From NCBI GenBank assembly GCA_016193335.1, contig JACPSK010000004.1:1-55305 (forward strand): a stretch of 55,305 bases of DNA, in the 5' to 3' direction. Positions 33,534-49,765 of the stretch are shown one piece after another (the first letter of the stretch is position 1; each line of letters begins with the position of its first letter). The position numbers were made by a program, and so were the translations under genes. The notes beneath the pieces are model-generated. The model did not search any database and was not told the origin of the DNA. It worked only from the letters and a program-made list of their open reading frames with translations. The stretch comes from Candidatus Magasanikiibacteriota bacterium. GTDB lineage: Bacteria; Patescibacteriota; Patescibacteriia; Magasanikbacterales; UBA922.

Positions 33534-35522
33534 GTGCCCAGTTTCCGTTTTCAAAAATTTTTTGATTTACTAAACAAAAAAAGACGCAACCCGCGTCCTA
33601 TCGTGTCTTTACGTCATGATCTGACCATGTTGCGCAAGGTTCGCGGACGGCGTCTTCCATCTCTCAAGCAATGTTTTCATATCAGGAGCATACTTAGTCG
33701 CTTCGAGGGTTTTGTCCTCAGTGTCGCGATTTTGGTTTTTTTCTTTGGCATTGTCTGGTTTTTGAAAAATGTCTCCGCGCAATTTAGAATAGAGGTGCCT
33801 GCCGTGGGCGCCGCCTATACCGAAGGAGTGGTCGGTTCGCCTCAGCTCATTAATCCACTTTTTGCAACCTTAAATGACGTGGATATGGATCTGGTGCGAC
33901 TCGTGTACTCGGGTCTTATGAGATACGATGAAAATGGCAGGCTGGTGATGGACTTGGCAAGCCGCTACGAAGTAAGTGAAGACAAAAAGACCTATACCTT
34001 TGAGTTGAAAAAAGATGTCCGCTGGCATGATGGAGAAATTTTTGACGCTGCGGATGTTTTGTTTACTTTTCAAGCCCTAAGAGACCAGGCGGTAAGCAGT
34101 CCATATCGTCTTTCTTTTCAGGGGATTGAAGTAAGGGCTCTCGATGATTATACCGTGCAGTTTAGCCTGTCTGAGCCTTTCCAGTCTTTTTTGTCGAGCT
34201 TAACTCTTGGCATCTTGCCAGAACATATTTGGGCTAGTATCAGCATAGACACCATGCGTCTTGCGCAAAGGAATCTCAAGCCTATCGGCACGGGTCCTTA
34301 TTTTTTCAAACGTCTCTTAAAGGGCGAGTCTGGCTTTATAAGTTCGGTAGAGCTCGAGCGTTTTGAGGTTTTTTACCGTCAGCCTCCTTTTATAAAAGAA
34401 TTGGATTTTCAATTTTTTAGGGAATACGAAGGCCTTGACGGGGCCATAGAAGCCTTGCGTGAGGGGAAAATTCAAGGTCTCCAATTTATCCCATTCCATT
34501 TGAGGGAAAAGGTAAAACGCAAACACAATGTGTTATATACCCTGCAGCTTCCGCAGTATTCTGCTTTGTTTTTCAATCAGGATCATTCCGAGGTTCTCAA
34601 AGACAAGGAACTCCGCAAAGCCTTGGCCCAAGGTTTGGATAAGGAGCGCATCCTTAATGAGACCATTCTGAACGAAGGGACCATCATTAATGGCCCTTTG
34701 TTGCCCGGCAATCCGGGTTATGATCCGGAATTCGACAGCTACCTCTATTCTGTGGCAGAAGCAAATGCTCTCCTTGATAAAAAATGGAAAGCGATTGGGG
34801 CGGACATTTACCGTGAAGAGCTCAAACAACAGATTCTGGGGCAAAAAAAGGCCGAGATTGCCTCGAGCACTTCTCAGACAGATGGACAAAGTAATCCAGA
34901 TCCGGAGATTGATAAACGATTGGATCAAGAAGCTGAACAATCGGTAAAAGAACAGCTAAGCGAGGCTCAACTTTTTTACAGAAAAAATGAGGCTGGAGAT
35001 ATTCTGAAGTTCAAGATCGTTACTGCCGATACTCCGGAATATCAAAAAGCGGTCCACGTTATAGCAGGTTTTTGGCAAGAATTGGGAGTGGCAACCGAAA
35101 TTAGCTTGGTTCCTCCCAAAGATATGGCCCGGGAAGTTTTGCGGGGTCGAAATTATGATGTTTTACTCTACGGAGTTATCGTAGGCAGTGACCCGGATCA
35201 ATTTCCTTTCTGGCATTCATCGCAGATTGATTACCCCGGTTTGAATTTGTCCCGTTATGTCAACAGAAACGTGGATACTATCATACAGAAGGCCAGGGAA
35301 ATTTCGGATCAAACAGAGATCGAATCTTTATTTAAGAAATTTCAAGAGGCTGTGCTTGAAGATATTCCCGCGATATTTTTGTACACCCCGACCTATACCT
35401 ATGTTCTAAGCGATAAGATACAAGGTTTTGACACTAAACGCATCGCCCATCCCTCGGATCGTTTTGCTGGCGTGAACAGTTGGTATATAAAGACGAAACA
35501 TACATGGAGTTTCAAAAGATAA
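33534..35522 (+). CDS. family-5 extracellular solute-binding protein (peptide/oligosaccharide ABC-type SBP, OppA-like), membrane-anchored
   Basis: N-terminal TM helix FVLSVAILVFFFGIVWFL followed by an SBP_bac_5-like body (YTFELKKDVRWHDGEIFDAADV, GTGPYFF). The start is uncertain: GTG 33534 or ATG 33627. Confidence 0.75.
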   Translation: MPSFRFQKFFDLLNKKRRNPRPIVSLRHDLTMLRKVRGRRLPSLKQCFHIRSILSRFEGFVLSVAILVFFFGIVWFLKNVSAQFRIEVPAVGAAYTEGVVGSPQLINPLFATLNDVDMDLVRLVYSGLMRYDENGRLVMDLASRYEVSEDKKTYTFELKKDVRWHDGEIFDAADVLFTFQALRDQAVSSPYRLSFQGIEVRALDDYTVQFSLSEPFQSFLSSLTLGILPEHIWASISIDTMRLAQRNLKPIGTGPYFFKRLLKGESGFISSVELERFEVFYRQPPFIKELDFQFFREYEGLDGAIEALREGKIQGLQFIPFHLREKVKRKHNVLYTLQLPQYSALFFNQDHSEVLKDKELRKALAQGLDKERILNETILNEGTIINGPLLPGNPGYDPEFDSYLYSVAEANALLDKKWKAIGADIYREELKQQILGQKKAEIASSTSQTDGQSNPDPEIDKRLDQEAEQSVKEQLSEAQLFYRKNEAGDILKFKIVTADTPEYQKAVHVIAGFWQELGVATEISLVPPKDMAREVLRGRNYDVLLYGVIVGSDPDQFPFWHSSQIDYPGLNLSRYVNRNVDTIIQKAREISDQTEIESLFKKFQEAVLEDIPAIFLYTPTYTYVLSDKIQGFDTKRIAHPSDRFAGVNSWYIKTKHTWSFKR

Positions 35523-35530
35523 TAAGCTTA

Positions 35531-35568
35531 CTTGTAATTTTTAGTTTATAATTTATAAACTAAAAATT
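35531..35568. repeat. palindromic copy of the A/T-rich motif
   Basis: ttgtaatttttagtttataa/tttataaactaaaaatttca, so both orientations are fused. Confidence 0.5.
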
Positions 35569-35594
35569 TCATTGTGAATAATCCTGGAAAAAGT

Positions 35595-35676
35595 GCCGCG
35601 GTGGCGGAACTGGCAGACGCGCGTGATTCAGGTTCACGTATCGCAAGATGTGAGAGTTCGAGTCTCTCCCGCGGCA
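35595..35676 (+). tRNA. tRNA-Leu (anticodon CAG), class II with long variable arm
   Basis: gccgcgg-tg-gcg-gaactggcaga-cgc-g-cgtga-ttCAGgt-tcacg-(tatcgcaagatgt)-gagag-ttcgagt-ctctc-ccgcggc-a. CCA is not encoded. Confidence 0.85.
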
Positions 35677-35839
35677 CTTTTTCCAGGATATACCTCAGAG
35701 TTTTTATTTTTTTCTTTTCAGCTTAAATGCATGGAGGAATTTTACTCACTTTTTTTAAGAGTCTAAAAACAGACGCTTTTCAGCTTTGAAGGGAGCTGCG
35801 GAAACTTCGTTTTGGCTCTGGAGTCATACATATATATAT

Positions 35840-37699
35840 ATGGATCTGTCAACGCAAACGGTATCTCAGCCTCGTCCGTCTTCCAGGCCTTCGGGACAAA
35901 CCTCTCGAAATTCAGCCAAAAAAAGACGTCATGGGACTTTTGGCCGCCAACAGAAAAAAGACGGCCCCCCGTCTCGATTTGACCAGAGGCCCGCCTCTTC
36001 TGTCCGGCACCTTTCGCCTCCACAAGGTGTTTCTCAAAATACCTTGCGGATCATCACGGTTGGCGGCTGTGAAGAAGTGGGAAGAAATATGACCATATTC
36101 GAATATGGCGATGATATCATTATTCATGATATGGGTCTTCAGTTTCCTGAAGAAGACATGCCGGGGATCGATTATATTATCCCGAACATCAAATACTTGA
36201 AAGGCAAAGAGAGAAAAGTCAGGGGAGTTGTATTCAGTCATGGCCACCTCGATCATATAGGAGCGGCGCCTCTTCTTTTGGAACAGCTCGGCTATCCTCC
36301 GATTGTAGGTATGCCTTTAACCCTCGCGATGATAAAGCACAAACAGGAAGATTACAAAAAGGGAAGCATTAAATCTCTCAAGACCATTACCATAAAGAAT
36401 GTTCATGAACATGTGTCTTTGGGTTCTTTTAGAGTTGGATTTTTTCAGGTGGAACATTCCATTATGGATTCAGTGGGAGTGCGTATAGAGACTCCGGTAG
36501 GGACTGTTTTGCATCCCGGAGATTGGACTATGGAACGGGATAGGGAAGGGAAGACGCATATTACCTATGATCATCTGAGAGACGTGAAAAAGCCAAGCAT
36601 TCTTATGCTCGAAAGTTTGGGCGCTTTGAAAGAGGGCCGTCACGCCACTCATGAGGAGCTCTATGAAAATTTGTATACTATCATGGGTAAGGCTGAAGGA
36701 AGGGTGATCATAGCAACCTTTTCTTCTCAGGTGGAACGAGTGAAATGGGTTATAGAGGCCGCCCAGAAGCTCAACAAAAAAGTCGCCTTGGATGGCTTTA
36801 GCATGAAAAAGAATATTGAAATAGCCAAAGAATTGGGTTATGTGAAACCGAAGCGTGGCGTGCTTATCGATGTCCGCCAGATAGATAATTTTAAAGATAA
36901 CCAAATCGTGGTGGTTTGCACGGGTGCTCAGGGAGAAGAAAACGCGGTTTTGAACAGAATCGCGAGCGGCCAGCACCGCAGTGTAAACTTGCGGAAAACC
37001 GATACCGTAATTTTTTCTTCTTCGATTATTCCGGGGAATGAGCGCTCGATACAGAGACTCAAAGATAATATTTATCGCCAAAGCGATCATGTTATACATG
37101 GGGATTTGATGGATGTGCATGTGAGCGGCCATTCCACGAGACGAGATATTTTGGACATGCTGTCTCAAGTAAAACCCGACTATTATATTCCGGTTTTTGG
37201 CAACCATTTCTTTTTGAAAGAATCTCGGAATTTGGCCATTGAAAACGGTTTTGATCCTGGAAAAATTATCGTTCCGGACAATGGTTCTATTATAGAGCTT
37301 GACAAAAACGGTCTTCGCGTCTTGGATTATAAGGCTCCTGCGGATTACGTCTTTGTAGACGGACTTGGCGTGAGTGACACTCAGCAGATTGTTCTTCGAG
37401 ACCGGCAGGTTTTGGCCGAGGATGGCATGATCGTGATTATCGCGACTGTCGAGACCAAGACCGGCAAATTGGTTCAAAATCCGGATATTATTTCACGGGG
37501 TTTCGTGTTTCTTAAGGACAATAAAAAATTGATAGAAGACATACGGCACAAAGTCAAAACCATGGTCATAGCCTCCAATCCTTCCACTTGGGCGGACAGC
37601 AACCAGATTAGAAATGATGTGCGGGATAAAATAGGTCAATTTATTTTCACCAAGACTCAAAAGCGCCCTATGGTGCTCCCCGTAGTCATACAAGTGTAG
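35840..37699 (+). CDS. rnj: ribonuclease J (metallo-beta-lactamase/beta-CASP) with a ~70-aa basic Ser/Pro/Arg-rich N-terminal extension
   Basis: VGRNMTIFEYGDDIIIHDMG, HGHLDHIGA and HVSGHS motifs. ATG 35840 is preferred. Confidence 0.9.
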   Translation: MDLSTQTVSQPRPSSRPSGQTSRNSAKKRRHGTFGRQQKKDGPPSRFDQRPASSVRHLSPPQGVSQNTLRIITVGGCEEVGRNMTIFEYGDDIIIHDMGLQFPEEDMPGIDYIIPNIKYLKGKERKVRGVVFSHGHLDHIGAAPLLLEQLGYPPIVGMPLTLAMIKHKQEDYKKGSIKSLKTITIKNVHEHVSLGSFRVGFFQVEHSIMDSVGVRIETPVGTVLHPGDWTMERDREGKTHITYDHLRDVKKPSILMLESLGALKEGRHATHEELYENLYTIMGKAEGRVIIATFSSQVERVKWVIEAAQKLNKKVALDGFSMKKNIEIAKELGYVKPKRGVLIDVRQIDNFKDNQIVVVCTGAQGEENAVLNRIASGQHRSVNLRKTDTVIFSSSIIPGNERSIQRLKDNIYRQSDHVIHGDLMDVHVSGHSTRRDILDMLSQVKPDYYIPVFGNHFFLKESRNLAIENGFDPGKIIVPDNGSIIELDKNGLRVLDYKAPADYVFVDGLGVSDTQQIVLRDRQVLAEDGMIVIIATVETKTGKLVQNPDIISRGFVFLKDNKKLIEDIRHKVKTMVIASNPSTWADSNQIRNDVRDKIGQFIFTKTQKRPMVLPVVIQV

Positions 37700-37727
37700 T
37701 TGAAATTTGTAATTTTTATCTATCGAA

Positions 37728-37830
37728 GCCTATTCCTTCATAACATATTTTAAAAAGCCGGAGGACGAGTGCGAGAGCGAAGCGGGATGACTTCCGTAGG
37801 CTTTTTGAAATATGTTATGAAGGGATAGGC
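37728..37830. repeat. long hairpin element: 32-bp arms (2 mismatches) around a 39-nt GC-rich loop
   Basis: The left arm gcctattccttcataacatattttaaaaagcc (37728-37759) pairs with ggctttttgaaatatgttatgaagggataggc (37799-37830). The loop carries gcgagagcgaagcggg, which is also present (inverted) at 6168-6183. Confidence 0.8.
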
Positions 37831-37852
37831 AGGTATCTATCCACACTCTGAA

Positions 37853-37881
37853 TTGACTTTTTTTCTCTTGTAATCTATAGT
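37853..37881 (+). promoter_or_regulatory. promoter TTGACT-17-TATAGT of the aromatic operon leader
   Basis: ttgact at 37853-37858, a 17-nt spacer, tatagt at 37876-37881. The ATG lies 9 nt further downstream. Confidence 0.6.
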
Positions 37882-37890
37882 ATTTGCATT

Positions 37891-37941
37891 ATGCAAGGTA
37901 CAAGCTCAAGATCTTACTTTTATTTTTACTTTACCTCTTAG
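37891..37941 (+). CDS. 16-codon Tyr/Phe-rich leader peptide MQGTSSRSYFYFYFTS
   Basis: atg caa ggt aca agc tca aga tct tac ttt tat ttt tac ttt acc tct tag. It sits between a promoter and an intrinsic terminator, directly upstream of the Phe/Tyr biosynthesis operon. Confidence 0.6.
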   Translation: MQGTSSRSYFYFYFTS

Positions 37942-37994
37942 CCGAGGCCTTGTTGCTGTATCCCGCGAAAGAGCGGAAAATAAATTACAACATC

Positions 37995-38022
37995 AAGAAC
38001 CTCGGTAAGAGGTTCTTTTTTT
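37995..38022 (+). terminator. attenuator terminator upstream of aroA
   Basis: aagaacctc-ggtaa-gaggttctt plus a T run (9-bp stem). Its 5' arm cctcgg (38000-38005) can alternatively pair with ccgagg (37942-37947), which lies immediately after the leader stop codon. Confidence 0.7.
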
Positions 38023-38050
38023 CTATAACATTGATTGTACAATTCTACAT

Positions 38051-39340
38051 ATGGAATTGATCGTAGAAACAACTAATCGTCTCAAAGGCTCTGTAACTCC
38101 GCCTTCATCAAAATCGCACAGCGTCCGTGCTGTTCTTTTGGCGAGCCTTTGCAGAGGGACGAGCAAAATAAGGAATCTCCTCAAAAGCGATGATACGGAA
38201 GCTGCTTTGGACATAGCAAAAGCACTTGGGGCCAACATTGAAGAAAGAAAAGACATGCTTTTGCTTAATGGTTTTGGCCTTCCTCTTAATCCGAAAGACA
38301 GACTATTTTCCAGGGATTCGGGTATCAGTACAAAATTTACATTACCTCTTCTCGGTTTCCAGAAAGACGGAAACAAAACTATTATTCTCGACGCCGGGGA
38401 GCAAATGCGCAGGCGTCCCATTATGCCCTTGGTAGAGACTTTGAATAAACTCGGCATGAATATCGTTCCTGCAAGGTCCGATTGTCCTTTTCCTTTGGCT
38501 GTTTCAGGAATTTTGCGGGGAGGTATTGCGGAAGTGGATGGAAAAAGTTCACAGTATATTTCCGCGCTTTTACTGGCGCTTCCTCTCGCGCCCGCGGATT
38601 CGGTTATGAGGGTTAAAAACTTGCAAGAACGGCCTTACGTGGATATGACGCTTTCTTGGCTGGATCGTTTGGGAGTTTTTTATAAACATTCACACTCAGG
38701 AGATACAGATCTGTATGAAATTCCCGGTCAGCAAGCCTATCTGCCCTTTGAGATCAGTATTCCCGGAGATTTTTCCTCAGCCTCGTATACCATCGCGGCA
38801 GCCGCCCTTATCCATGGCGATGTGCTGGTTAAGGGATTAGACATGAATGATCCGCAGAGCGACAAACGACTAATTGAGATTTTGCGGGATATGGGCGCGG
38901 ATATACAAAAGCTTGCTGAAGGATTGCAGATCCGCGGCAGAGGGACTTTGCGCGGTATGACGATTGACGCGAATGATATTCCTGATATGCTTCCGACCCT
39001 TGCTGTTGTCGGCGCATGCGCAGAGGGCGAAACGCGTATCGTGAATGTGGCCCACGCGCGTATTAAAGAAACCGATAGGATTCATTCCATGTACGAGGGC
39101 TTGAAGGCGATGGGCGCGGATATAGAAGAACTCCCGGATGGTTTGCTTGTACGGCAGAGCCGTTTGACCGGCGCCCGGGTTCATGGCTGTCATGACCACC
39201 GCAGCGTGATGGCGCTTGCGCTTGCGGGCATGATCGCAGAGGGCCAAACGGTCATCGACACCGCTGAATCGGTTGGGAAAACCTATCCCGGATTTGTGGA
39301 AGATATGAAGGGATTAGGAGGGGTGATGGCTCTCGGCTGA
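38051..39340 (+). CDS. aroA: 3-phosphoshikimate 1-carboxyvinyltransferase (EPSP synthase)
   Basis: 429 aa; PPSKSHSVRAVLLASL, LGNSGT-like region, and KETDRI. Confidence 0.93.
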   Translation: MELIVETTNRLKGSVTPPSSKSHSVRAVLLASLCRGTSKIRNLLKSDDTEAALDIAKALGANIEERKDMLLLNGFGLPLNPKDRLFSRDSGISTKFTLPLLGFQKDGNKTIILDAGEQMRRRPIMPLVETLNKLGMNIVPARSDCPFPLAVSGILRGGIAEVDGKSSQYISALLLALPLAPADSVMRVKNLQERPYVDMTLSWLDRLGVFYKHSHSGDTDLYEIPGQQAYLPFEISIPGDFSSASYTIAAAALIHGDVLVKGLDMNDPQSDKRLIEILRDMGADIQKLAEGLQIRGRGTLRGMTIDANDIPDMLPTLAVVGACAEGETRIVNVAHARIKETDRIHSMYEGLKAMGADIEELPDGLLVRQSRLTGARVHGCHDHRSVMALALAGMIAEGQTVIDTAESVGKTYPGFVEDMKGLGGVMALG

Positions 39341-39361
39341 TTTTTATGACTATGATTGAAT

Positions 39362-39389
39362 AAAAATTATAAATGGTAAATTATAAATT
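39362..39389 (+). repeat. A/T-rich intergenic motif copy
   Basis: aaaaattataaatggtaaattataaatt. It ends 9 nt before ATG 39399. Confidence 0.6.
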
Positions 39390-39398
39390 CCAATATCT

Positions 39399-39932
39399 AT
39401 GTCTCATCTTATTCTCATCGGATTCAAGCATGTGGGAAAATCCGTTATCGGACAAGCGCTCGCTAAGGCTTTGAATTTGCCTTACTTAGACACAGACCGC
39501 GAGATAGAGAGAATCCATTTCGAAAAATCGGGCGATTCATTGAGCTGTCGCCAAATCGCGGAAAAGTTCGGTCTGGATTATTTTCGAGATCTGGAATCCG
39601 AAGCTTTGGTCAGTCTTCTTGCGCGCGTCGAACCGCAGGTGCTTTCCACGGGTGGCGGCACGCCAATACGAAACGGCAATCGTGACCGGATTAAAGAGCA
39701 CACTGTTATTCATGTTCAGGCCCCCAAGGGCCATGTCTACGAGAGAATTTTATCGGACGGACGGCCCGCGTTTTGTCCGCCAGGCTCAGAGCCGCTTATC
39801 GCACTCCAAAAGATTTGGGAAGAGCGCGAACCAGTATACCGGGCGCTTGCCAACATAAGCATAGTAAACGACGGCACCATAGACAAAGCTGTGGAACGTA
39901 TTATTGAAGCCGTATCAGTACGGACTCTATGA
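39399..39932 (+). CDS. aroK: shikimate kinase
   Basis: P-loop LIGFKHVGKSVIG, DTDREIE, and STGGG. Confidence 0.85.
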   Translation: MSHLILIGFKHVGKSVIGQALAKALNLPYLDTDREIERIHFEKSGDSLSCRQIAEKFGLDYFRDLESEALVSLLARVEPQVLSTGGGTPIRNGNRDRIKEHTVIHVQAPKGHVYERILSDGRPAFCPPGSEPLIALQKIWEEREPVYRALANISIVNDGTIDKAVERIIEAVSVRTL

Positions 39933-40354
39933 AGACGATTTTACTTATTCATGGCCCGAATTTAAATATGCTTGGGAAACGTGATCCGGAGCATTATGGT
40001 TCATTTACTTTGCCTGAACTTGAGGATCGGATGGTGGAGGAGTCTGAGAAGCGCTGTATAAACCTCATCATGTTTCAGTCCAATCACGAGGGGGCATTGA
40101 TTGATTTTTTGCAGGTAGAGGGGAGAAACGCGGACGCGATTATTATCAATCCCGGAGCTCTGACGCATTACAGCTATGCTTTGCACGACGCGATACAAGA
40201 CGCGAAACTACCGGCTCTTGAAGTTCATCTTTCCGATATAAAGAATCGCGAAGCCTGGCGCTCGGTCTCAGTTATCGCGCCGGCTTGCCTGGGCCAGATC
40301 ATGGGCAAGGGGATCGAGGGGTATATAGAGGCCTTGGACATATTGGCGCGGTAA
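39929..40354 (+). CDS. aroQ: type II 3-dehydroquinate dehydratase
   Basis: ILLIHGPNLNMLGKRDPEHYG, NPGALTHYSYALHDA and EVHLSDI. Confidence 0.93.
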   Translation: MKTILLIHGPNLNMLGKRDPEHYGSFTLPELEDRMVEESEKRCINLIMFQSNHEGALIDFLQVEGRNADAIIINPGALTHYSYALHDAIQDAKLPALEVHLSDIKNREAWRSVSVIAPACLGQIMGKGIEGYIEALDILAR

Positions 40355-40356
40355 AA

Positions 40357-41202
40357 ATGATTTTTATGCAATCTTTTCACAATTCTCAGATCACAGACAA
40401 CGCAATTATCGGTTATCCGCTCTCGCATAGTTTGAGCCCTGTTTTGCACGCATTCGTGTATGAAAAATACGGCCTGTCCGCGCGTATGGAAAAGCTTGAA
40501 GAAAAAAATATTGAGCGCGCCATGCAAGCTATTCGTAAAAAGCCTTATGCGCTCATCGCGGTAACGATTCCGCATAAAGTTGAGATCTTGAAGTATCTCG
40601 ATGAAATTAGCGAGACTGCGCGAGATATAGGCGCGGTGAATACCGTAATCAATATGGGCGGAGTTTTGAAAGGCTATAATACAGATATTACTGGCCTTGA
40701 ATACGCGCTCGGAGATATTCAAATACAAGATAAAGCCGTTTTGCTTCTCGGAGCAGGCGGAGCCGCTCGCCCGGCCGCTTATTGGGCAAAACAAAAAGGG
40801 CTTAATATACTATGCGCGAATCGTTCTCAGAAAGGCGCGGAAAATTTGGTTCAGAAGTTTGGCGGAGGCCTTGTTTCAATTGGACAGGTGGATCCGGAAA
40901 GGATCGGATTGATTATCAACGCCACGCCGATTGGAATGTATCCCAAGAGTGATCTTTCACCTTTGCCCTCCGAATTTTTCCGGCCGCATCATAGTATTTT
41001 TGATATGGTATATTCACCGCTTGAAACCATCTTACTCAAAAAGGCCAGAGCCGCGGGCGCGCGTACTATTTCCGGTCTCAACATGTTCGTGGCGCAGGGG
41101 TTGGAACAGATTCGATTGTGGAGCGGTTTTGACACTCTTTCATATGGGAGCCAGGCATTTGAATACCTCAGGTGTATGCTTATCCAGCCTGCTCGTGAAT
41201 GA
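40357..41202 (+). CDS. aroE: shikimate 5-dehydrogenase
   Basis: GYPLSHSLSPVLHA, VTIPHK, GAVNT, GYNTD and LLGAGGAAR. ATG 40357 follows directly after the aroQ stop. Confidence 0.9.
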   Translation: MIFMQSFHNSQITDNAIIGYPLSHSLSPVLHAFVYEKYGLSARMEKLEEKNIERAMQAIRKKPYALIAVTIPHKVEILKYLDEISETARDIGAVNTVINMGGVLKGYNTDITGLEYALGDIQIQDKAVLLLGAGGAARPAAYWAKQKGLNILCANRSQKGAENLVQKFGGGLVSIGQVDPERIGLIINATPIGMYPKSDLSPLPSEFFRPHHSIFDMVYSPLETILLKKARAAGARTISGLNMFVAQGLEQIRLWSGFDTLSYGSQAFEYLRCMLIQPARE

Positions 41203-41212
41203 TAAAGGAACC

Positions 41213-41240
41213 CGTAGATAAATTATAAATTAAAAATTTT
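41213..41240 (+). repeat. CGTAGATA + A/T-rich intergenic motif copy
   Basis: cgtagataaattataaattaaaaatttt. It ends 6 nt before ATG 41247. Confidence 0.6.
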
Positions 41241-41246
41241 CCTCTT

Positions 41247-42284
41247 ATGAATCTCAGAAAAATAAAAAAAATTCCGACTTCAGAAGAAATCATTCAGCAG
41301 TTTCCGCTTTCAGAAGCCGGTTTGGAACAAATCGCGAAAGACCGTCAGGAAATTAAAGATATTCTGGCCGGCAAAGATGACCGTATGATTTTTATTATTG
41401 GTCCTTGTTCGGCTTGGCCGCGTGAGGCCGTGATTGAATACGCAACTCGGCTTAAAGCATGCGGTGAAGGAATTAAAGATAAGATAAAACTTGTTTTGCG
41501 GGTTTACATTCAAAAACCCCGAACCACCAAAGGCTGGACTGGTCCGGTAAACCAGCCCGATCCTTTGGGTGTGCCGGATATAGAAGAGGGGATGAAATAT
41601 TCTCGATCTCTTATGGTCAGGGCGATTGAAATGGGTTTGCCTATAGCGGATGAAGCTCTGTTTACTCATAACGCGAAAGGATTTCTTGAACTTTTGAGCT
41701 GGGTTGCCGTGGGAGCGCGAAGCACCGAAGACCAGGAACATCGGATTTTCGCTTCTGCGATCGAGTGCGCGGTGGGCATGAAAAACCCGACCAGTGGCTC
41801 GATTGAGATCGGAGTAAACAGCATCATCGCGGCCCAATACCCGCATACGGCTGTTTTTCATGGCTATCAGGTGGAAACGGGCGGCAACCCTTACGCTCAT
41901 CTTGTCTTGCGTGGAGGAGATAAGGGCCCGAATTATGGCCTCGGGTCTATTGAGGAAGCGGCGCGCTTGATGGAAAAACATCAGATCAAAAATCCGGCCA
42001 TTATCATTGACGCCAGCCATGACAATTGTAAAATAGACGGAGAAAAATCGCTCGAACAACAGGAGAATATTGTGCATAGCGTGATAGAAACTCGCAAAAA
42101 GAATCCTCAAGCTCATAAAGTTGTCAAAGGATTTATGGTGGAAAGTTTTCTCAAACCCGGGAGCCAAAAGATTGATCCGCGTAAGCCCGAAGAAGTTGAC
42201 AGGGGAGGACTTTCGATCACTGATCCCTGTTTGGGCTGGCAAGAAACCGAAGATCTGCTCAAGCGTGCGGCGGGCGTGATTTAG
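41247..42284 (+). CDS. aroG: 3-deoxy-7-phosphoheptulonate (DAHP) synthase, class I-alpha (AroF/G/H type)
   Basis: DDRMIFIIGPCS, RVYIQKPRTTKGWTG, WVAVGARSTEDQEHR, VGMKN, LRGG, IIDASHDN and SITDPCLGWQETE parallel E. coli AroG. Confidence 0.9.
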   Translation: MNLRKIKKIPTSEEIIQQFPLSEAGLEQIAKDRQEIKDILAGKDDRMIFIIGPCSAWPREAVIEYATRLKACGEGIKDKIKLVLRVYIQKPRTTKGWTGPVNQPDPLGVPDIEEGMKYSRSLMVRAIEMGLPIADEALFTHNAKGFLELLSWVAVGARSTEDQEHRIFASAIECAVGMKNPTSGSIEIGVNSIIAAQYPHTAVFHGYQVETGGNPYAHLVLRGGDKGPNYGLGSIEEAARLMEKHQIKNPAIIIDASHDNCKIDGEKSLEQQENIVHSVIETRKKNPQAHKVVKGFMVESFLKPGSQKIDPRKPEEVDRGGLSITDPCLGWQETEDLLKRAAGVI

Positions 42285-42341
42285 GGGGGACAATCTGGGA
42301 GAAATTCAGTGTGACATAATTTGAATATTGGAGGTTAATTT

Positions 42342-43457
42342 ATGAATACAAAAAGTATTCAAGTCCGATTAGGTTCAGACATCAATCGAACATATTCCGT
42401 ACTCATAGGATCCGGGCTCTTTGATATTCTTGCTGAGCGTCTTGCCGGATATTCGGATATTTATCGTTTTGCTCTGATCAGTGATAAATCGGTGGCCGAT
42501 ATGTTTGCCGAACCGCTGATGCGGGCCCTTAGGGAGAAAAATCTTGATGTTGAATCTCTCGCATTTCCCACGGGCGAGGAACACAAAAATCAGGCAACAA
42601 AAACCTTGCTTGATAGCGAACTCCTCAAGCGCGGATTTGGACGCGATAGTATGATAATCGCCCTTGGAGGCGGAGTGAGCGGTGATATGGCAGGCTTTGT
42701 GGCGGCCACCTATATGCGCGGTATTCCTTATGTGCATGTGCCAACAACATTTCTCTCGATGGTGGACAGTTCGATTGGCGGTAAAACCGGCGTCAATACC
42801 GCCTATGGGAAAAATCTTATCGGCGCGTATCATCAGCCGCGACTGGTACTGCAAGATTTAAAGATGCTTAAAGATCTGCCGGAACACCAGATGGTGAATG
42901 GACTTTTTGAAGCGATAAAAATGTTTTGCACGAGTGACGCGGATATGTTCGCATATGTTCGCGATAATCGAGAGGCTCTCTTTGCCAAAGACCAAACAGT
43001 ACTCCTTCGGATTGTTGAAGGAGCCGTGAAAATAAAAGCAGGCATTGTATCTATGGATGAACGGGAATCCAATGAACGTATGCTGCTGAATTTCGGCCAT
43101 ACTATTGGACATGCTCTGGAATTGCTTTCAGATTATAGGATTCCTCACGGATACGCGGTAGCTTGCGGCATGATCGCGGAAACCAAAATGGCTGAGCTTG
43201 CTGGCATAGCCGAGCCCGGACTAACGACACAGATCAAAGAGTTATTGGTCTCGTGTGGGCTTGATACAGAACCCCTCAGTTTATTCAATCCAGAAGATGT
43301 GCTATCGGCAACGGCAAAAGACAAAAAGACGAGAAAAGCCGTGGTTCGCTACATCCAGCTTGAAAGAATAGGCGAACCGCACCGAGCGGACGAAGCCTAT
43401 GCCGTTCCAGTTGATGGGAATATCGCGCTCAAGGCGCTCAAAGAATTAAAATCGTAA
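42342..43457 (+). CDS. aroB: 3-dehydroquinate synthase
   Basis: ALGGGVSGDMAGFVAATYMRGIPYVHVPTT, SSIGGKTGVN and NFGHTIGHALE. GGAGG lies upstream of the start. Confidence 0.93.
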   Translation: MNTKSIQVRLGSDINRTYSVLIGSGLFDILAERLAGYSDIYRFALISDKSVADMFAEPLMRALREKNLDVESLAFPTGEEHKNQATKTLLDSELLKRGFGRDSMIIALGGGVSGDMAGFVAATYMRGIPYVHVPTTFLSMVDSSIGGKTGVNTAYGKNLIGAYHQPRLVLQDLKMLKDLPEHQMVNGLFEAIKMFCTSDADMFAYVRDNREALFAKDQTVLLRIVEGAVKIKAGIVSMDERESNERMLLNFGHTIGHALELLSDYRIPHGYAVACGMIAETKMAELAGIAEPGLTTQIKELLVSCGLDTEPLSLFNPEDVLSATAKDKKTRKAVVRYIQLERIGEPHRADEAYAVPVDGNIALKALKELKS

Positions 43458-43460
43458 TAT

Positions 43461-44573
43461 ATGGCAGGTAACAGTTTTGGACAAGTATTTCGGATAAGTA
43501 CCTTTGGAGAATCGCATGGCGGCGCGCTTGGTGTTGTGATTGACGGTTGTCCGGCAGGGCTTGGAATTTCCGCGGACGAAATAGAAGCAGAGCTGAAACG
43601 TCGGGCTACCGGACAGAGTGAAATCACTTCGCCCCGCAAAGAAGAAGACAGAGTGGAAATTCTTTCCGGAGTATTTGAAGGGATGTCGCTCGGTACTCCC
43701 ATTGCTTTGCAAGTGAGAAATAAGGATGCCAGACCCGAGGATTATGAAAAATTAAAAGACATTTTCCGTCCCAGCCACGCGGATTTTACCTACGAACAAA
43801 AGTATGGACGCCGCATGTGGGCCGGCGGCGGACGTGCCAGCGCCCGCGAAACCACGGCCAGGGTTATGGCTGGCGCTTTGGCTCGAAACTTGCTCAAACA
43901 AGAAGCTGGCATAGAAATTTCGGCCGGCGTAACGCGGGTTTATGATATTGAAAGTGATGGGAATCTAAATGCGATAAGACGAGAAAATACAGAATCAAAT
44001 CTCATGCGTTGCCCGGACCCCGAGCTTGCCAAACGTATGCAGGCCGCGGTTGAGCGGGCAAAAGAAGAAGGTGATTCTTTGGGCGGAGTCATTACTTGCG
44101 TTGTTCGTAATGTCCCCGTGGGCTTGGGCGAGCCGGTATTTGATAAACTCGAAGCAGACTTGGCAAAAGCCTGTTTGTCTCTTCCGGCGACCAAGGGATT
44201 TGAAATCGGTTCAGGCTTTGCCGGAACTTTTATGAAAGGATCAGAGCATAATGACGCGTTTATTTCAAAAAAAGACGGGTCAATCGGCACTCTTAGCAAT
44301 CATTCCGGCGGTGTCCAAGGCGGCATTTCAAATGGAGAAGATATTGTCATTCGCGTGGCGTTCAAACCGGTTTCCACGATCAATAAGACACAAGACACGG
44401 TTGATCGAGAAGGAAACGCGGTAAAAATGGAAAATGTAAAGGGCCGGCATGATCCCTGCGTTTTGCCCCGAGCCGTGCCGATTGTGGAAGCCATGGTCGC
44501 CTTGGTTTTGGCGGATCATCTTTTAAGAGCTCGTCTTGCTCGGGTGAATGGGAAAATTGCTCGTGGTTTGTAA
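43461..44573 (+). CDS. aroC: chorismate synthase
   Basis: [43 protein letters not shown] and GRHDPCV. Confidence 0.95.
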
Positions 44574-44590
44574 TAAATAATTGTGGTAGA

Positions 44591-44689
44591 AGAAATCCAA
44601 GGAATATTTTTTTCATAATGGCAAAACTCGTCCGGCCGAAGCTGGACTTAAACAGTTGCCATTATGAAAAAAATATTCCTTGGATTTCT
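44591..44689. repeat. perfect 34-bp inverted repeat with a 31-nt loop between aroC and pheA
   Basis: agaaatccaaggaatatttttttcataatggcaa (44591-44624) is the exact reverse complement of 44656-44689. The loop contains the mini-hairpin tccggc-cgaa-gctgga. Confidence 0.9.
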
Positions 44690-44738
44690 CAGCTCCATCC
44701 GTTATTTTAGATACATGTTATATAATTTTAGAGATATT

Positions 44739-45311
44739 ATGTCAGTACTGGATAAAAAAATGATCGCAGTCTCAGGTCTCGCCGGTTCATTTTCCGAAGA
44801 AGCGGGACTTTTGTATGCTCAGCGCGAAGGCTTCGAAGCAGAGTTTGTATTTTCTATTGATATGGAAGGCGTGCTCGCGGATCTTGACGCAGGTAGAGCG
44901 GAATTTGGCGTGTTTCCGGTGGTAAATTCACGGGGCGGTTTGGTACAAACCGCGTTTGAAGCCATGGGTAGACATCTGTTTAAAATGGTGGATGAGATCT
45001 GGATGGAAGTTCATCAATGTCTAATGGTTTTGTCTGACACGAAATTGGAAAATATCAAAAGAATAGCTACTCATCCTCAAGCCATTTCGCAATGCGAGCG
45101 ATATATCCGCCGTGAATTTCCGGACGCCGCCCTCGTAGAGTGGGAAGATACGGCAAAAGCGGCCGAAGATCTTGCAAAAGGGAAGTTTGACAAAAATACC
45201 GCGGTCATCGCCCCGGCCCGTTCGGCTCATTTGTATGGGCTTAAATTATTGGCAAAAGGAATTCAAGATAATCATCCGAATCTGACGACTTTTATTGTGG
45301 TAACAAAGTGA
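44739..45311 (+). CDS. pheA: prephenate dehydratase, catalytic PDT domain only (no ACT domain)
   Basis: IAVSGLAGSFSEEA, THPQAISQC and TAVIAPARSAHLYGL. The protein ends at NLTTFIVVTK, where an ACT domain would begin. The start is uncertain (44715, 44739 or 44760), and the track start 44664 lies inside the inverted repeat. Confidence 0.8.
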   Translation: MSVLDKKMIAVSGLAGSFSEEAGLLYAQREGFEAEFVFSIDMEGVLADLDAGRAEFGVFPVVNSRGGLVQTAFEAMGRHLFKMVDEIWMEVHQCLMVLSDTKLENIKRIATHPQAISQCERYIRREFPDAALVEWEDTAKAAEDLAKGKFDKNTAVIAPARSAHLYGLKLLAKGIQDNHPNLTTFIVVTK

Positions 45312-46078
45312 TTATGAGGTTTGGTGTTATTGGATATGGAAGATTTGGGAAATTGTGGGCGCAATTGTTGCGCTCTTTTGGGCATGTTTTGGTCTCAGAG
45401 ATCTCATGTGAATCGGGGACGCAAGATGAAGGCCTTGTTTTTGTGACTCTTCGAGAAGTCGTTGAAGTTGATTTGCTTTTTTTGCTGGTTCCGATTTCCG
45501 CGATGGAAGACTTATGTCGGGATTTGGAGCATATAATTGGTCCAAAAACTATTGTGGTAGACGCCTGTTCGGTAAAATGTTATCCTGCGCGTGTGATGAA
45601 AGAATACCTTCCACAGGGCCAAGAGATTATAGCCACTCATCCGCTTTTTGGCCCGGATTCGGTTGCAAAATTTGGATTGGAAGGGCGACAAATAGCCGTT
45701 TGCCCTGTGAGCGCGAAGGAAAAGAATGTGGTTTTTTTCAACTCAATGATGAAACGGATGGGCCTCTCTGTCATAGAAACGACGCCGGAAGAGCACGACA
45801 AACAAATGGCCCGTTCTCAAGCCTTGGTGCATTTTATAGGGAGAGGCCTCGGCCCTTTGGAGTTGAAGGATCAGGAAATTGCAACTCCCGATTACAAAAC
45901 TTTACTTCAAATGAACGCGATGGTGGAACATGATACCTGGGAATTGTTTTACGATATGCAGACATATAATCCCTACGCGGCAGATATGAGACAAGTATTT
46001 TTGAAGGAACTTGGAGAGCTTGAAACAAAGATCGAAGCTAGAACCCATCTCAAAAATAATTTTGAGCCGGGGTTCTAA
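45308..46078 (+). CDS. tyrA: prephenate/arogenate dehydrogenase
   Basis: Rossmann motif FGVIGYGRFGK, THPLFGPDS and PEEHDKQMARSQAL. An alternative ATG is at 45314. Confidence 0.85.
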   Translation: MIMRFGVIGYGRFGKLWAQLLRSFGHVLVSEISCESGTQDEGLVFVTLREVVEVDLLFLLVPISAMEDLCRDLEHIIGPKTIVVDACSVKCYPARVMKEYLPQGQEIIATHPLFGPDSVAKFGLEGRQIAVCPVSAKEKNVVFFNSMMKRMGLSVIETTPEEHDKQMARSQALVHFIGRGLGPLELKDQEIATPDYKTLLQMNAMVEHDTWELFYDMQTYNPYAADMRQVFLKELGELETKIEARTHLKNNFEPGF

Positions 46079-46205
46079 ATAGCTTGTTTGGAGCATTGAA
46101 AAATTCCGAAAAATGATGTCCAATGTAAGAAGAAATCGCTGCGCTTTGTTCCTCTTTCCCTTTTCAAGGGGGGTGAGAGGAGATTAGGAACTCAACATAG
46201 TATAT

Positions 46206-46469
46206 ATGAATAGTGATTTGCAAACATTTCGTCTCAAACTCGACAAGATAGATCGGAGCATCATGGGATTCTTGGCCGAGCGATGCGAAATAGCGCGATT
46301 GATCGGCGAGCACAAACGCGCGCAAGAGATTTCGGTCGAAGATCCGAATCGAGAATCAGTGATGCGCCAAGAACGAAAGCGTTTCGCTTCCGAGCATGGT
46401 CTCGATTTTGATTTTGTAGAAGCTGTGTTTTCTTTGTTGATACAAGAGTCCAAACATCTGCAACTTTGA
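46206..46469 (+). CDS. monofunctional chorismate mutase (AroQ class)
   Basis: 87 aa; LQTFRLKLDKIDRSIMGFLAERCEIARLIGEHK, which is typical of the CM_2 helical fold. Confidence 0.8.
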   Translation: MNSDLQTFRLKLDKIDRSIMGFLAERCEIARLIGEHKRAQEISVEDPNRESVMRQERKRFASEHGLDFDFVEAVFSLLIQESKHLQL

Positions 46470-46472
46470 TAT

Positions 46473-47639
46473 ATGAGATTCGCTCAAAGAACCCATATTC
46501 AAGCTTCCGCGACTGTTACTATCAATGGTTTGGCTTTAAAAAAACGCGCCGCTGGCGAGCGAGTGTTCAATTTATCGGCCGGAGAACCGATGGTCAACAC
46601 TAATTCCTTTGTTCTCGAAGCCGCTCGAAAGGCTATGGAAGAAGGGCGAACCCATTATACACCTGTGCCCGGCATCTCGGAGCTTCGGTCCGTGGCAAGC
46701 GTCTGGATGAACCGTTTTTACCAAAGCGATTTTTCACAGAGTCAGACTCTTGTAAGCGCCGGCGGCAAATCTGCTTATCATCTTGCCGTTCAAGCATTGG
46801 TAGAGCCCGGAGATGAAGTCATTATGATTGCTCCGTACTGGGTTTCGTATTCTTCCATAGTGGAATTGTACGGCGGCACTCCGATTGTGGTCAGTACAAA
46901 AGAATCTGATCATTGGAAATTGTCGCCTGAAGGATTAATAAAATTGTGCACCGGTAAAACAAAACTTTTTGTTTTAAATAATGCTTCAAATCCCACCGGA
47001 GTTTTGTACACGAGAGAAGAATTGAAAGCCTTACTCCAAATCGCCGCAGAGCGCGGTATTTTTGTGATATCGGATGAAGTCTACGGCGGTCTTGTATATG
47101 ATGATCATGAATTTGTTTCCGTTGGATCTTTTCGGGAATATAAGGATAAGGTCGCTATCATTCAAAGCGCTTCAAAGCAGTTTGCCATGACCGGTTGGCG
47201 GCTTGGTTTTGCCTTTGGACCGGAGGAATTTATAAAAGTTTTAATCACCCTTCAGGGCCAAGATACCACCTGCGCTTCAAGTATCAGCCAATATGCCGCG
47301 CTCGCGGCCTTTCAAAACGCGGATAAAATAATACCGGCGGTTCGGGGCTGTATGCAGGAAAGGAGAAATGTTTTTGTCCAAAGCTTCAATGAATTATTCC
47401 CCGAGCCTATAGACCCGCCTCTGTCATCATTATATTGTTTTATTCCTATTCGAGCTTTTGGTTCAAGTGAAATAAATTCAGTGGCTTTTTGTGAGCGCGT
47501 TCTTAAGGAAGCGAACGTGGCCATGGTTCCGGGAATGGCGTTTGGAACCGAAGCTTATGTGCGCTGTTCTTTTGGGGAAGAGGCAGAAGAGTTGACCGCA
47601 GGCTTGCAGGCTCTCGGTGAGTATCTTTCAAAATACTAA
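46473..47639 (+). CDS. class I/II PLP-dependent aminotransferase (aspartate/aromatic aminotransferase-like)
   Basis: 388 aa. NLSAGEP, NNASNPTG, and the PLP-lysine region SASKQFAMTGWRLG. Confidence 0.85.
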   Translation: MRFAQRTHIQASATVTINGLALKKRAAGERVFNLSAGEPMVNTNSFVLEAARKAMEEGRTHYTPVPGISELRSVASVWMNRFYQSDFSQSQTLVSAGGKSAYHLAVQALVEPGDEVIMIAPYWVSYSSIVELYGGTPIVVSTKESDHWKLSPEGLIKLCTGKTKLFVLNNASNPTGVLYTREELKALLQIAAERGIFVISDEVYGGLVYDDHEFVSVGSFREYKDKVAIIQSASKQFAMTGWRLGFAFGPEEFIKVLITLQGQDTTCASSISQYAALAAFQNADKIIPAVRGCMQERRNVFVQSFNELFPEPIDPPLSSLYCFIPIRAFGSSEINSVAFCERVLKEANVAMVPGMAFGTEAYVRCSFGEEAEELTAGLQALGEYLSKY

Positions 47640-47702
47640 GGTATGGACTAACGGCGTATGAGTGTTGTACCATAGATGTCGTCAGTTCAGATTTTTTAAA
47701 AT

Positions 47703-47733
47703 CAAAAATTACAAATTAAAAATTGAAAATTTT
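47703..47733 (+). repeat. A/T-rich intergenic motif copy
   Basis: caaaaattacaaattaaaaattgaaaatttt, upstream of trpS. Confidence 0.55.
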
Positions 47734-47744
47734 AGAACCAATGT

Positions 47745-48728
47745 ATGTCCAAACCAGTTATTTTTTCCGGCATCCAGCCCACAGGCAATCTGCATCTTGG
47801 CAATTATCTTGGCGCCATTAAGAATTGGGTTGAGATTCAAAACAGCGGTGAATATACCTGTTTTTTTTCGGTGGTTGATTATCATTCATTGAGCGGCGGC
47901 ATAAGCTCCGAAGAACGGCGCGAGCAGATTGCGCGGATCGCGGCGGAGCTGATCGCCGCGGGCATTGATCCGGATAAGTCAACACTGTTTGTCCAGTCTC
48001 ATGTTCCCGAACATACGGAATTGGCCTGGATTTTTAATTGCCTTACGCCGGTCGCTGAGCTTGAGCGTATGACGCAATTTAAAGATAAATCCAAAGCCCA
48101 GGCAAAAAATATAAACGCCGGCCTTTTCACTTACCCCGTTCTCCAAGCCGCCGATATCCTTCTTTATCACGGCACCCATGTGCCGGTTGGCGAAGATCAG
48201 ATCCAGCATGTGGAATTGACCCGAAACATAGCCCGCTGGTTCAACAAACGCTACGGGGATTATTTTCCAGAGACAAAAGTGATTCTCACCAAAACTCCGC
48301 GTGTAAAAAGTTTGTTGGATCCTGCGGCGAAAATGAGCAAGAGCAAAGGCGCTGGACATGTGATAGAGCTTGCGGACGAGCCGGAACTTGTTTTTAAAAA
48401 AATGAAAAAAGCCGTTACTGCCACCGAAGGGGGCGGCAGGGCGCCCGGGGTGGAAAATTTATTTGTTTTATTAAAAGAATTCGCGCCCGAAGAAATTTAC
48501 ACGCAGTTTAAACAAGAAGAAAAAAACGCTTCTATCCAATATGGATCTCTAAAAGAAGAATTGGGCCGTTGTATCGGCGAGCGCTTTGCGGAATTCAGGG
48601 AACGTCGCCGCGAATTGCTTGACACTCACGATGAATTGGCAGAAGTTTTGGCCAAGGGGGCGGAGAAAGCGCAACACGTGGCCATCGGGACCATAAAACG
48701 AGTGCGCGAAATGATTGGAGTCCGATGA
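47745..48728 (+). CDS. trpS: tryptophan--tRNA ligase
   Basis: FSGIQPTGNLHLGNYLGA (HIGH-type motif) and KMSKS; 327 aa. Confidence 0.95.
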   Translation: MSKPVIFSGIQPTGNLHLGNYLGAIKNWVEIQNSGEYTCFFSVVDYHSLSGGISSEERREQIARIAAELIAAGIDPDKSTLFVQSHVPEHTELAWIFNCLTPVAELERMTQFKDKSKAQAKNINAGLFTYPVLQAADILLYHGTHVPVGEDQIQHVELTRNIARWFNKRYGDYFPETKVILTKTPRVKSLLDPAAKMSKSKGAGHVIELADEPELVFKKMKKAVTATEGGGRAPGVENLFVLLKEFAPEEIYTQFKQEEKNASIQYGSLKEELGRCIGERFAEFRERRRELLDTHDELAEVLAKGAEKAQHVAIGTIKRVREMIGVR

Positions 48729-48896
48729 TATTGCCGTGCCATTCATGATTTTGTATTTAAGTTGTTGGTCGCGATTTTAATCGCTGGCAAGATCGGACGG
48801 AGAATTGTTGACTTTGTTTTTCATTTGCTTAGATAAAAATTCACTCGTGCGGATTTTTACTTGCCGGAACGAATTACACAAAAAATAAAAACATAC

Positions 48897-48925
48897 TTGA
48901 CGATGTTATTTTTTAGTACTATCAT
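48897..48925 (+). promoter_or_regulatory. promoter candidate TTGACG-17-TATCAT
   Basis: ttgacg at 48897-48902 and tatcat at 48920-48925. Confidence 0.45.
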
Positions 48926-48991
48926 ATTGTGATTCTGTCTGATTTTTGAGGATGTTCGAGTCGTCCTTTTCCAAACGAGGAGAGAGAAACC

Positions 48992-49576
48992 ATGGACTTG
49001 GCACGAGGGCTTAAAGAAATTCGACGTCTGAGGGACGCCGGAGTGCTCCTGGACATTGAGGGCCATCGTCTTGACCAGAGCGCGGGTGTGGTAATGGTCT
49101 GTTGCGCGGACGGCGACCAGATGCATGATGTCTACACGACCCAGGCGGAGATGCAACGTGAACAGCGCGGAGAACCGCGCGTTCATCTTTTGTCCTGGAA
49201 TGGCGGGGCTTTGAGGCTTTTGGCCGATTCGCCCACGAATCGTCGTATTACGACAGCCCAAGAATTCTTGGACGAGATCAGGGACGCCTCGGTTCTGAAG
49301 AGTATCCCGGTTGTGGCGCTTTACGCTCACTTTCCTTGCGGAAAGGTGAAAGATACTCGCTTGGAGATTCAGCAAGTCTTTGCGGGCCTGATTGCCGCGA
49401 AGCAACGTCTCAAGCGGGAAATTCCCGGGGTCAGAGTAGCTTGCTTTTTTCATGTGGACTATCCAGATGTAGAAGCAGGCGAAACAGGATCTGGCCCTCG
49501 CAAGCGCACCTATTTCTTGTCCGTTGCTCGGTACATGGAGCTATACGACGCTAGGAGTGTTGGCTGTGTCGCGTAG
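48992..49576 (+). CDS. hypothetical protein (194 aa), GC-rich relative to neighbours
   Basis: The ORF has a purine-rich RBS (aggagagag). I recognise no family. Confidence 0.5.
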   Translation: MDLARGLKEIRRLRDAGVLLDIEGHRLDQSAGVVMVCCADGDQMHDVYTTQAEMQREQRGEPRVHLLSWNGGALRLLADSPTNRRITTAQEFLDEIRDASVLKSIPVVALYAHFPCGKVKDTRLEIQQVFAGLIAAKQRLKREIPGVRVACFFHVDYPDVEAGETGSGPRKRTYFLSVARYMELYDARSVGCVA

Positions 49577-49744: not shown

Positions 49745-49765
49745 CGCGGTTTTTTTGCATAAGCT

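Follow-up and report, generated by a model that had tools for sequence, protein, structure and literature searches.

A probable tyrosine/phenylalanine leader-peptide attenuator before the aromatic amino acid operon of a Candidatus Magasanikiibacteriota bacterium and its relatives

How would a bacterium from the CPR (candidate phyla radiation, or Patescibacteria) that makes its own phenylalanine and tyrosine adjust the pathway to its supply of the two amino acids? Most descriptions of this group have its members without amino acid biosynthesis, and their gene regulation is poorly understood. The question is raised by a contig of a Candidatus Magasanikiibacteriota bacterium (JACPSK010000004.1, assembly GCA_016193335.1; positions 1 to 55,305 of the forward strand, hereafter the window), which carries an operon for these two amino acids preceded by a short open reading frame (ORF) rich in Tyr and Phe codons. 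An earlier reading of this DNA, made from its letters alone (the sequence-only reading), had proposed that the ORF and the RNA that follows it form an attenuator responding to both amino acids. Folding, ribosome-mask modelling, conservation in ten relatives and covariation in the antiterminator all support that proposal, and we consider it probable that the element is a ribosome-mediated (leader-peptide) transcription attenuator that senses Tyr and Phe and acts on the aromatic operon behind it. The features on which this argument is built are the following.

37853-37881, + strand: sigma-70-type promoter TTGACT-17-TATAGT, read directly from the sequence (-35 box 37853-37858, 17-nt spacer, -10 box 37876-37881)
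37888, + strand: predicted transcription start, an A that is the 7th nucleotide (nt) past the -10 box, which would leave a 5' untranslated region of 3 nt, AUU
37891-37941, + strand: leader ORF of 16 codons plus TAG, MQGTSSRSYFYFYFTS, read directly from the sequence (ATG at 37891, TAG at 37939-37941)
37893-37911, + strand: putative segment 1, from the G of the ATG through codon 7, an anti-antiterminator that pairs with 37936-37953 in co-transcriptional snapshot folds
37915-37932, + strand: proposed regulatory codons Tyr9 Phe10 Tyr11 Phe12 Tyr13 Phe14 (tac ttt tat ttt tac ttt), from the sequence
37933-37947, + strand: segment 2, the predicted antiterminator 5' strand, ACCUCUUAgCCGAGG, which holds the last two sense codons and the stop codon
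37949-37997, + strand: central hairpin that extends the antiterminator helix in the fold, with base CUUG/CAAG and an apical CCGC/GCGG stem-loop at 37963-37976
37995-38022, + strand: predicted intrinsic terminator AAGAACCUC-GGUAA-GAGGUUCUU and U-run (9 bp, loop of 5; hairpin 37995-38017, then TTTTTCT)
38051-47639, + strand: operon of 11 genes under the proposed control, from Pfam and NCBIfam scans

The promoter, the ORF with its stop codon and the complementary stretches ccgagg (37942-37947), cctc (37934-37937) and cctcgg (38000-38005) all lie where the sequence-only reading had placed them. So does the 9-bp terminator, whose T-run ends at 38022, 28 nt before the aroA start at 38051. The leader is read as atg caa ggt aca agc tca aga tct tac ttt tat ttt tac ttt acc tct tag. 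Runs of at least six consecutive Phe, Tyr or Trp codons, in any frame, occur twice in the window against 0.095 expected.

The minimum free energy fold of the leader is one long hairpin at -37.3 kcal/mol (z = -3.55), and 0 of 200 shuffled sequences fold as well. It pairs 37933-37940 (ACCUCUUA) with 38006-38013 and 37942-37947 (CCGAGG) with 38000-38005, giving an antiterminator of 14 bp between 37933-37947 and 38000-38013 with one bulge, G37941. An earlier caveat, that this helix would have only 6-7 bp, falls away with the longer pairing. Segment 2 is complementary to the top of the terminator 5' arm, to the terminator loop and to most of the 3' arm. Folding of the alternative structures, a check suggested earlier, gives two mutually exclusive folds.

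The effect of a ribosome on these folds was modelled by making a ribosome-sized stretch unpairable, with its leading edge 9 or 12 nt past the first A-site nucleotide; the results are equilibrium folds and carry no kinetics. The 9-nt mask yields the antiterminator (13 bp counted) for A-site positions Tyr9 to Phe12, and the 12-nt mask does so for Tyr9 to Tyr11; when the A site is moved to later codons or to the stop, the fold obtained is the 9-bp terminator. These modelled folds fit attenuation, in which an early stall within the Tyr/Phe run would give read-through and a ribosome that reaches the stop would give termination.

We propose the following course of events. Transcription would start about 3 nt before the AUG at 37891, and a ribosome would translate the 16-codon leader while RNA polymerase moves ahead. 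Were Tyr-tRNA or Phe-tRNA scarce, the ribosome would stall on the first four of the six Tyr/Phe codons (37915-37926) and leave segment 2 free, which, extended by the central hairpin, would pair with 38000-38013; the terminator could then not form, so that the polymerase would read into aroA and the ten other Phe/Tyr genes. Were both charged tRNAs plentiful, the ribosome would reach the TAG inside segment 2 and cover that segment, the 9-bp terminator and U-run would form, and transcription would stop at about 38022. Once the ribosome is released, codons 2-7 pairing around segment 2 may tentatively be taken to block the antiterminator. Across the relatives described below, cognate segment 1 duplexes are stronger than non-cognate ones (permutation p = 0.0006), and we treat this 1:2 helix (segment 1 with segment 2) as a tentative part of the model.

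Translation of the ORF is not needed for the two exclusive structures to exist, and segment 2 is separated from its pairing partner, segment 3, by the central hairpin. Both observations would also suit a switch made of RNA only or one that binds a factor, such as a riboswitch, a T-box-like element or a protein-dependent antiterminator, with the aromatic codons incidental. The Rfam searches point away from such a switch, as no family reached the gathering threshold for the element anywhere in the window or in the loci of 14-15 relatives, and no riboswitch or T-box model matched in the window or the relatives. When the region was searched at E values up to 10, the best sub-threshold match was the attenuator family Phe_leader (RF01859; 21.4 bits, E = 0.16-0.41, gathering threshold 55); other weak matches, to miRNA, snoRNA and sRNA models, were set aside as noise. 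A T-box would not fit into this region of about 80 nt. Relatives differ in the length and sequence of the central hairpin (77-97 nt separate their last aromatic codon from the U-run), so that it offers no conserved pocket. Conservation falls on the reading frame, on the aromatic amino acids, which are kept through synonymous changes, and on where the stop codon lies. We therefore hold a switch of this kind to be improbable, and the leader-peptide attenuator remains the preferred reading.

The leader design of the window, which we call type A, was found in ten distinct relatives, giving eleven sequences with the window. They come from metagenome-assembled genomes (MAGs) of Magasanikbacteria or Parcubacteria type whose AroA is 51-57% identical to that of the window, and they share its architecture upstream of aroA. 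The best AroA matches are Patescibacteria (Magasanikbacteria, Parcubacteria, Peregrinibacteria/Peribacteria and Gracilibacteria). Identity did not exceed 54% for any AroA relative in the GTDB species genomes or the JGI metagenomes, and the best match in a large protein set reached 57%. Two sequencing runs carry a leader identical to that of the window and thus offer no usable within-species variation. The leader peptides of the ten relatives, each named by its locus number, are as follows.

L003: MNIRTKAQSFYFYFWTSS
L004: MKHTSAANFYFYFFGNL
L009: MNIHSQAFYFYFFGTS
L010: MNINKKVFYFYFWKTS
L016: MDLYIKSQSFYFYFWASS...
L045: MNREQQSFYFYFWKTS
L047: MKHTSAANFYFYFGNL
L048: MNMHTQTFYFYWKAS
L074: MNMQSQSFYFYFWRTS
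L083: MKNIVHKSYFSFYFTTS...

The mini-ORF and its aromatic codons are thus conserved before aroA in these ten relatives, as the attenuator proposal had demanded. The FYFYF(W/F) run is kept despite synonymous changes between TTT and TTC and between TAT and TAC, and the stop codon lies between the CCUC and xCGAG halves of segment 2 in 9 of the 11 sequences. Left free, the RNA of each of the eleven adopts the long antiterminator fold (-23 to -35 kcal/mol); once its first 24 nt are masked, it gives the terminator instead. The locus shows together several marks of a leader-peptide attenuator: a run of codons for the end products, an intrinsic terminator, an antiterminator that excludes it and whose 5' strand a ribosome at the end of the ORF could cover, and conservation of the codons and their frame.

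This conservation also bears on the idea that the mini-ORF is a chance or non-regulatory product of a U-rich leader, and that the hairpin is a constitutive partial terminator or a 5' structure that stabilises the mRNA. U-rich sequence readily gives Phe and Tyr codons, and since most genes here lack a Shine-Dalgarno (SD) sequence, no mark would tell a translated ORF from an untranslated one. Against a chance origin stand the expectation of about 0.1 such runs per window and the recurrence, in eleven sequences with diverged flanks, of the run, of its frame to an ATG 8-10 nt past the -10 box and of a stop within segment 2. Aromatic leaders of unrelated design also precede aroA in other CPR lineages, and the antiterminator covaries. 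On account of the conservation we exclude a chance ORF, and give this explanation as a whole only a small probability.

The peptide itself could instead be the functional product, as a small hydrophobic peptide or one acting in trans like peTrpL; trans-acting leader peptides exist (PMC7298713). A variant of the idea uses an ORF of 58 amino acids in another frame (37884-38060), which is open in the window. The type A peptides are conserved only in the aromatic run and the last two residues, with an N-terminal half that varies freely. The longer ORF was rejected because its frame, open in no more than 2 of 11 relatives, is broken in the other 9. A function of the peptide would leave the covarying antiterminator unexplained, though it could coexist with attenuation. 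Of the explanations considered here we find this one the least probable.

An effect mainly on translation or mRNA decay, through access to the aroA start or through Rho, and not on intrinsic termination, would accord with the lack of an SD at aroA and with one relative of another leader design (L081, type C below) that has a helix beside its aroA start and no evident U-run terminator. In type A, on the other hand, at least four U follow the 3' hairpin in 11 of 11 leaders, and the aroA start lies at least 28 nt beyond the terminator hairpin, outside both folds. Such a mechanism may apply to type C, but for the element in the window its likelihood is slight, and transcription attenuation is retained.

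Comparative evidence for attenuation also comes from the antiterminator. MAFFT alignments of the leaders (A1 and A2) put segment 2 and the loop out of register, and RNAalifold run on A2 returned a meaningless structure of 7 pairs, which was discarded. The eleven sequences were aligned again by hand, anchored on four conserved tetrads and with N as the gap character (A3). In this alignment two antiterminator pairs link segment 2 to the first two nucleotides past the conserved CCUC of the terminator 5' arm, nucleotides that belong to the loop in the window. Both pairs form in 11 of 11 sequences, one as CG:6/UA:5 and the other as CG:9/UA:2, and a third is seen as GC:6/AU:1. Only 1 of 500 shuffles attained the covariation score, and slid controls scored about half as high. 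As the 3' partners are unpaired in the terminator in most sequences, the window included, the terminator does not explain these changes. The terminator itself is 84% paired across the eleven sequences, and its pair 30-50 shows GC, GU and AU.

A check that depends less on the hand anchoring used a covariance model trained on just four relatives (A4, R1). The model picks out the window element with 41.1 bits (E = 3e-5), has no further match in the window, and recovers every other type A leader among the loci collected for this study. Its alignment (A5) again pairs the inner helix in each of the 11 sequences, and the covarying position there reads UA:5, CG:5 and GC:1. Compensatory changes in the antiterminator, which the sequence-only reading had proposed to look for in the 37942/38000 pairing, are thus seen among the eleven sequences.

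Several points weigh against this interpretation. The start site, the translation of the ORF, the coupling of ribosome and polymerase and the response to Phe and Tyr are all inferred. In the mask folds, stalling on the last two regulatory codons would put the ribosome over segment 2, and at equilibrium the untranslated RNA favours the antiterminator by about 15 kcal/mol, so that termination needs either a ribosome on or just off the stop codon or an anti-antiterminator; the 1:2 pairing that might supply the latter is weak in 5 of the 11 sequences. The stop codon lies 8-12 codons further downstream in two relatives (L016/L046 and L083), and a leader is missing altogether from some CPR aroA loci (L002, L007, L075/L076 and L080). 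Alignment A3 was anchored by hand, and the eleven sequences are related and include two close pairs (L004/L047 and L003/L016), which leaves few independent compensatory events, at least 2-3. This kinship is the main limit of the covariation evidence.

The promoter matches the consensus at 10 of 12 positions and is among the six top-scoring sites in a consensus scan of 35000-50000; 9 nt separate its -10 box (TATAGT) from the ATG at 37891. Each of the ten type A relatives with upstream sequence has a promoter scoring 9-11 of 12 at the corresponding place. All 11 type A leaders set their ATG 8-10 nt past the -10 box, and the gap sequences have a purine at the 7th or 8th nucleotide past the -10 box, the canonical start position. 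This geometry predicts a 5' untranslated region of 2-3 nt for type A. A near-leaderless start of the leader mRNA, for which the gap length serves as a proxy, is thus an apt, if unproven, description that we think somewhat likelier than its contrary. The leader ORF indeed has no SD, as had been claimed; its absence does not set the leader apart, since most genes of the operon lack one too and only aroB has ggagg near its start. To judge from these starts, the organism seems to initiate translation largely without SD sequences.

A short box lies just upstream of the promoter.

37837-37845, + strand: CTATCCACA, which differs from TTATCCACA at one position and lies 7 nt upstream of the -35 hexamer

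The sequence TTATCCACA is the DnaA-box consensus. Boxes like it lie 6-8 nt upstream of the aro -35 hexamer in the window and in 8 of 10 type A relatives, L004, L009, L010, L016, L045, L047 and L048 among them. The box also precedes other near-consensus promoters (window 1177-1185, 10125-10133 and 6235-6243; L004 321-329), and over several such promoters, that of the 23S rRNA gene included, its distance to the -35 is 6-29 nt. From its distribution it looks like a general promoter-upstream element or a global-regulator site of the lineage, and the aro promoter may have in this conserved box an extra site of control.

Further upstream, in the stretch that runs from the RNase J gene, which ends at 37699, to the aro promoter, lies an inverted repeat (37728-37830) with arms of 32 nt that are 94% complementary around a 39-nt loop. 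It folds at -57.9 kcal/mol (z = -7.35) and has no second copy elsewhere in the window. Its two mismatches become G-U pairs on the + strand only, which suggests a hairpin in + strand RNA, perhaps the 3' end of the RNase J transcript or an insulator.

By Pfam and NCBIfam the operon encodes the full route from DAHP to Phe and Tyr: aroA, aroK, aroQ, aroE, a DAHP synthase of AroFGH type, aroB, aroC, prephenate dehydratase, prephenate dehydrogenase, chorismate mutase and a class I/II aminotransferase. The sequence-only reading had assigned all of twelve downstream genes to Phe and Tyr synthesis; eleven belong there, and the twelfth is a tRNA ligase gene.

47745-48728, + strand: trpS, tryptophan--tRNA ligase (TIGR00233, 304 bits)

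The 105-nt gap between the aminotransferase gene and trpS contains a candidate hairpin followed by AGAUUUUUU (47644-47697), so that trpS may be transcribed separately. It had also been observed that the prephenate dehydratase (215 amino acids) and prephenate dehydrogenase (256 amino acids) lack ACT domains, which the same scans confirm, and suggested from this that attenuation might be the main feedback on the pathway. The characterised AroFGH DAHP synthases of E. coli are feedback-inhibited. With a DAHP synthase of this class in the operon, attenuation need not be the main feedback, and the suggestion is weakened.

Within type A the codon content of the leader goes along with the genes upstream. 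The leaders of L003, L010, L016, L045 and L048 include a Trp codon (FYFYFW), and there the aro operon directly follows trpA (Pfam Trp_syntA); the window, L004, L047, L009 and L083 have neither the Trp codon nor trpA upstream. The association holds in 10 of 10 type A loci, where it is confounded by relatedness. It is absent in other designs, as L081 adjoins a trp operon and yet has no Trp codon. The codon mix may be tuned to pathway content within type A, and we keep this as a lead only.

About seven relatives carry other leader designs, and altogether some 17 of 22 distinct CPR aroA loci have an aromatic leader ORF. In type B, from Peribacteria and Gracilibacteria (L005, L006, L008 and L011), leaders of the form MNN..YGYFFYNFS.LKA precede aroA, with textbook 1:2 (CUUCAG/CUGAAG), 2:3 (CUGAAGGC/GCCUUCA) and 3:4 helices. 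Type C (L081, L082 and L087) has leaders of the form ..FFFFYFGH or ..SFFFYFW.., closed by a GGCC hairpin and lacking a clear U-run terminator; in L081 a helix, GUUCUCGC/GCGAGAAC, adjoins the aroA start, an arrangement that hints at a different output mechanism in this type. A single locus, L085, represents type D, with a ..SFYFSFFNP.. leader. We put forward tentatively, as a possibility that we rate below even chances, that CPR which retain aromatic synthesis use near-leaderless attenuators before aroA across lineages, with at least four RNA designs having evolved for the same task.

The element has counterparts among well-studied attenuators. Like the E. coli pheA (pheL, RF01859) and pheST leaders, it consists of a short aromatic ORF ending before or within the antiterminator strand and followed by an intrinsic terminator. 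Those leaders have an SD. They use Phe codons only, and they control a single gene (pheA) or a tRNA synthetase operon (pheST). As in E. coli trpL, the stop codon lies some 70-80 nt before the end of the terminator, and the two may share a four-segment logic of 1:2, 2:3 and 3:4 pairing. In the trp leader, however, the stop is upstream of segment 2 and a strong 1:2 helix terminates the untranslated RNA, whereas in the window the stop is inside segment 2, segment 2 complements both terminator arms and the loop, and the 1:2 helix is weak or uncertain.

Before the aroF operon of Corynebacterium glutamicum lies a leader peptide containing Phe-Tyr-Phe, and the system responds when Phe is limiting (Neshat et al. 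2014, cited in PMC11802643; PMC4046766). This aroR/aroF system resembles the present one in placing a mixed Phe/Tyr leader before a shikimate-pathway operon, and stalling there raises read-through. It has three regulatory codons before the aroF operon and is reported to respond to Phe only, where the window has six alternating Tyr and Phe codons before an 11-gene route. The two leaders show no sequence relationship and come from different phyla. Also in C. glutamicum, the ilvBNC leader peptide is reported to be formed without a ribosome-binding site (Morbach 2000, cited in PMC4046766).

In Acholeplasma the uORFC-13-1 motif upstream of aroF is a candidate attenuator based on an upstream ORF (uORF; PMC8632094), and has in common with our element its Phe codons, promoter elements, adjacent terminator stem and place before the first shikimate-pathway gene. 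It differs in having a ribosome-binding site, in drawing at least one Phe codon from a U run and in its RNA design, and it occurs only in Acholeplasma and environmental sequences (PMC8632094). In mycobacteria, leaderless polycysteine short ORFs attenuate operon expression (bioRxiv 10.1101/834739). They too combine a sensory ORF at the 5' end of the mRNA, the lack of an SD and ribosome stalling; they sense Cys, and their leaderless status was shown experimentally (10.1101/834739), whereas the start in the window is a predicted one.

The sequence-only reading had known of no description of such an arrangement. This holds for the particular leader family, of which we found no published description, and for CPR/Patescibacteria, in which our literature searches found no report of leader-peptide attenuation. 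It does not hold for the separate traits, since mixed Phe/Tyr leaders, uORF attenuators at aroF and leaderless attenuator ORFs have all been published. The element is new for Patescibacteria and its sequence family is not in Rfam, while its mechanism is not new. Because that mechanism is textbook, the gain is one of breadth and not of principle. A conserved attenuator before a complete Phe/Tyr pathway would mean that some CPR synthesise both amino acids and use tRNA charging to meter the pathway. Such an element further suggests that in these bacteria ribosomes closely trail RNA polymerase and that, for translation, an AUG placed 2-3 nt from the end of the mRNA suffices. Attenuators throughout these lineages, if real, would imply tight coupling of transcription and translation in these ultra-small bacteria. 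As a compact candidate for an Rfam family, the element could also serve as a marker for annotating aro operons in CPR MAGs.

Three further observations concern other parts of the window. The 23S rRNA match (1570-4986) spans 3417 nt against a model of 2925 positions, implying one or more insertions of about 490 nt in total; insertions in rRNA genes are common in CPR. ARAGORN identifies a tRNA-Ile with anticodon UAU on the - strand (25481-25556), which is unusual, as most bacteria read AUA with a lysidine-modified CAU tRNA. On the - strand, a gene for a large serine recombinase (49877-51493; 538 amino acids, Resolvase and Recombinase domains) abuts and slightly overlaps a tRNA-Asn gene (49817-49891), a junction that could mark the edge of an integrated element.

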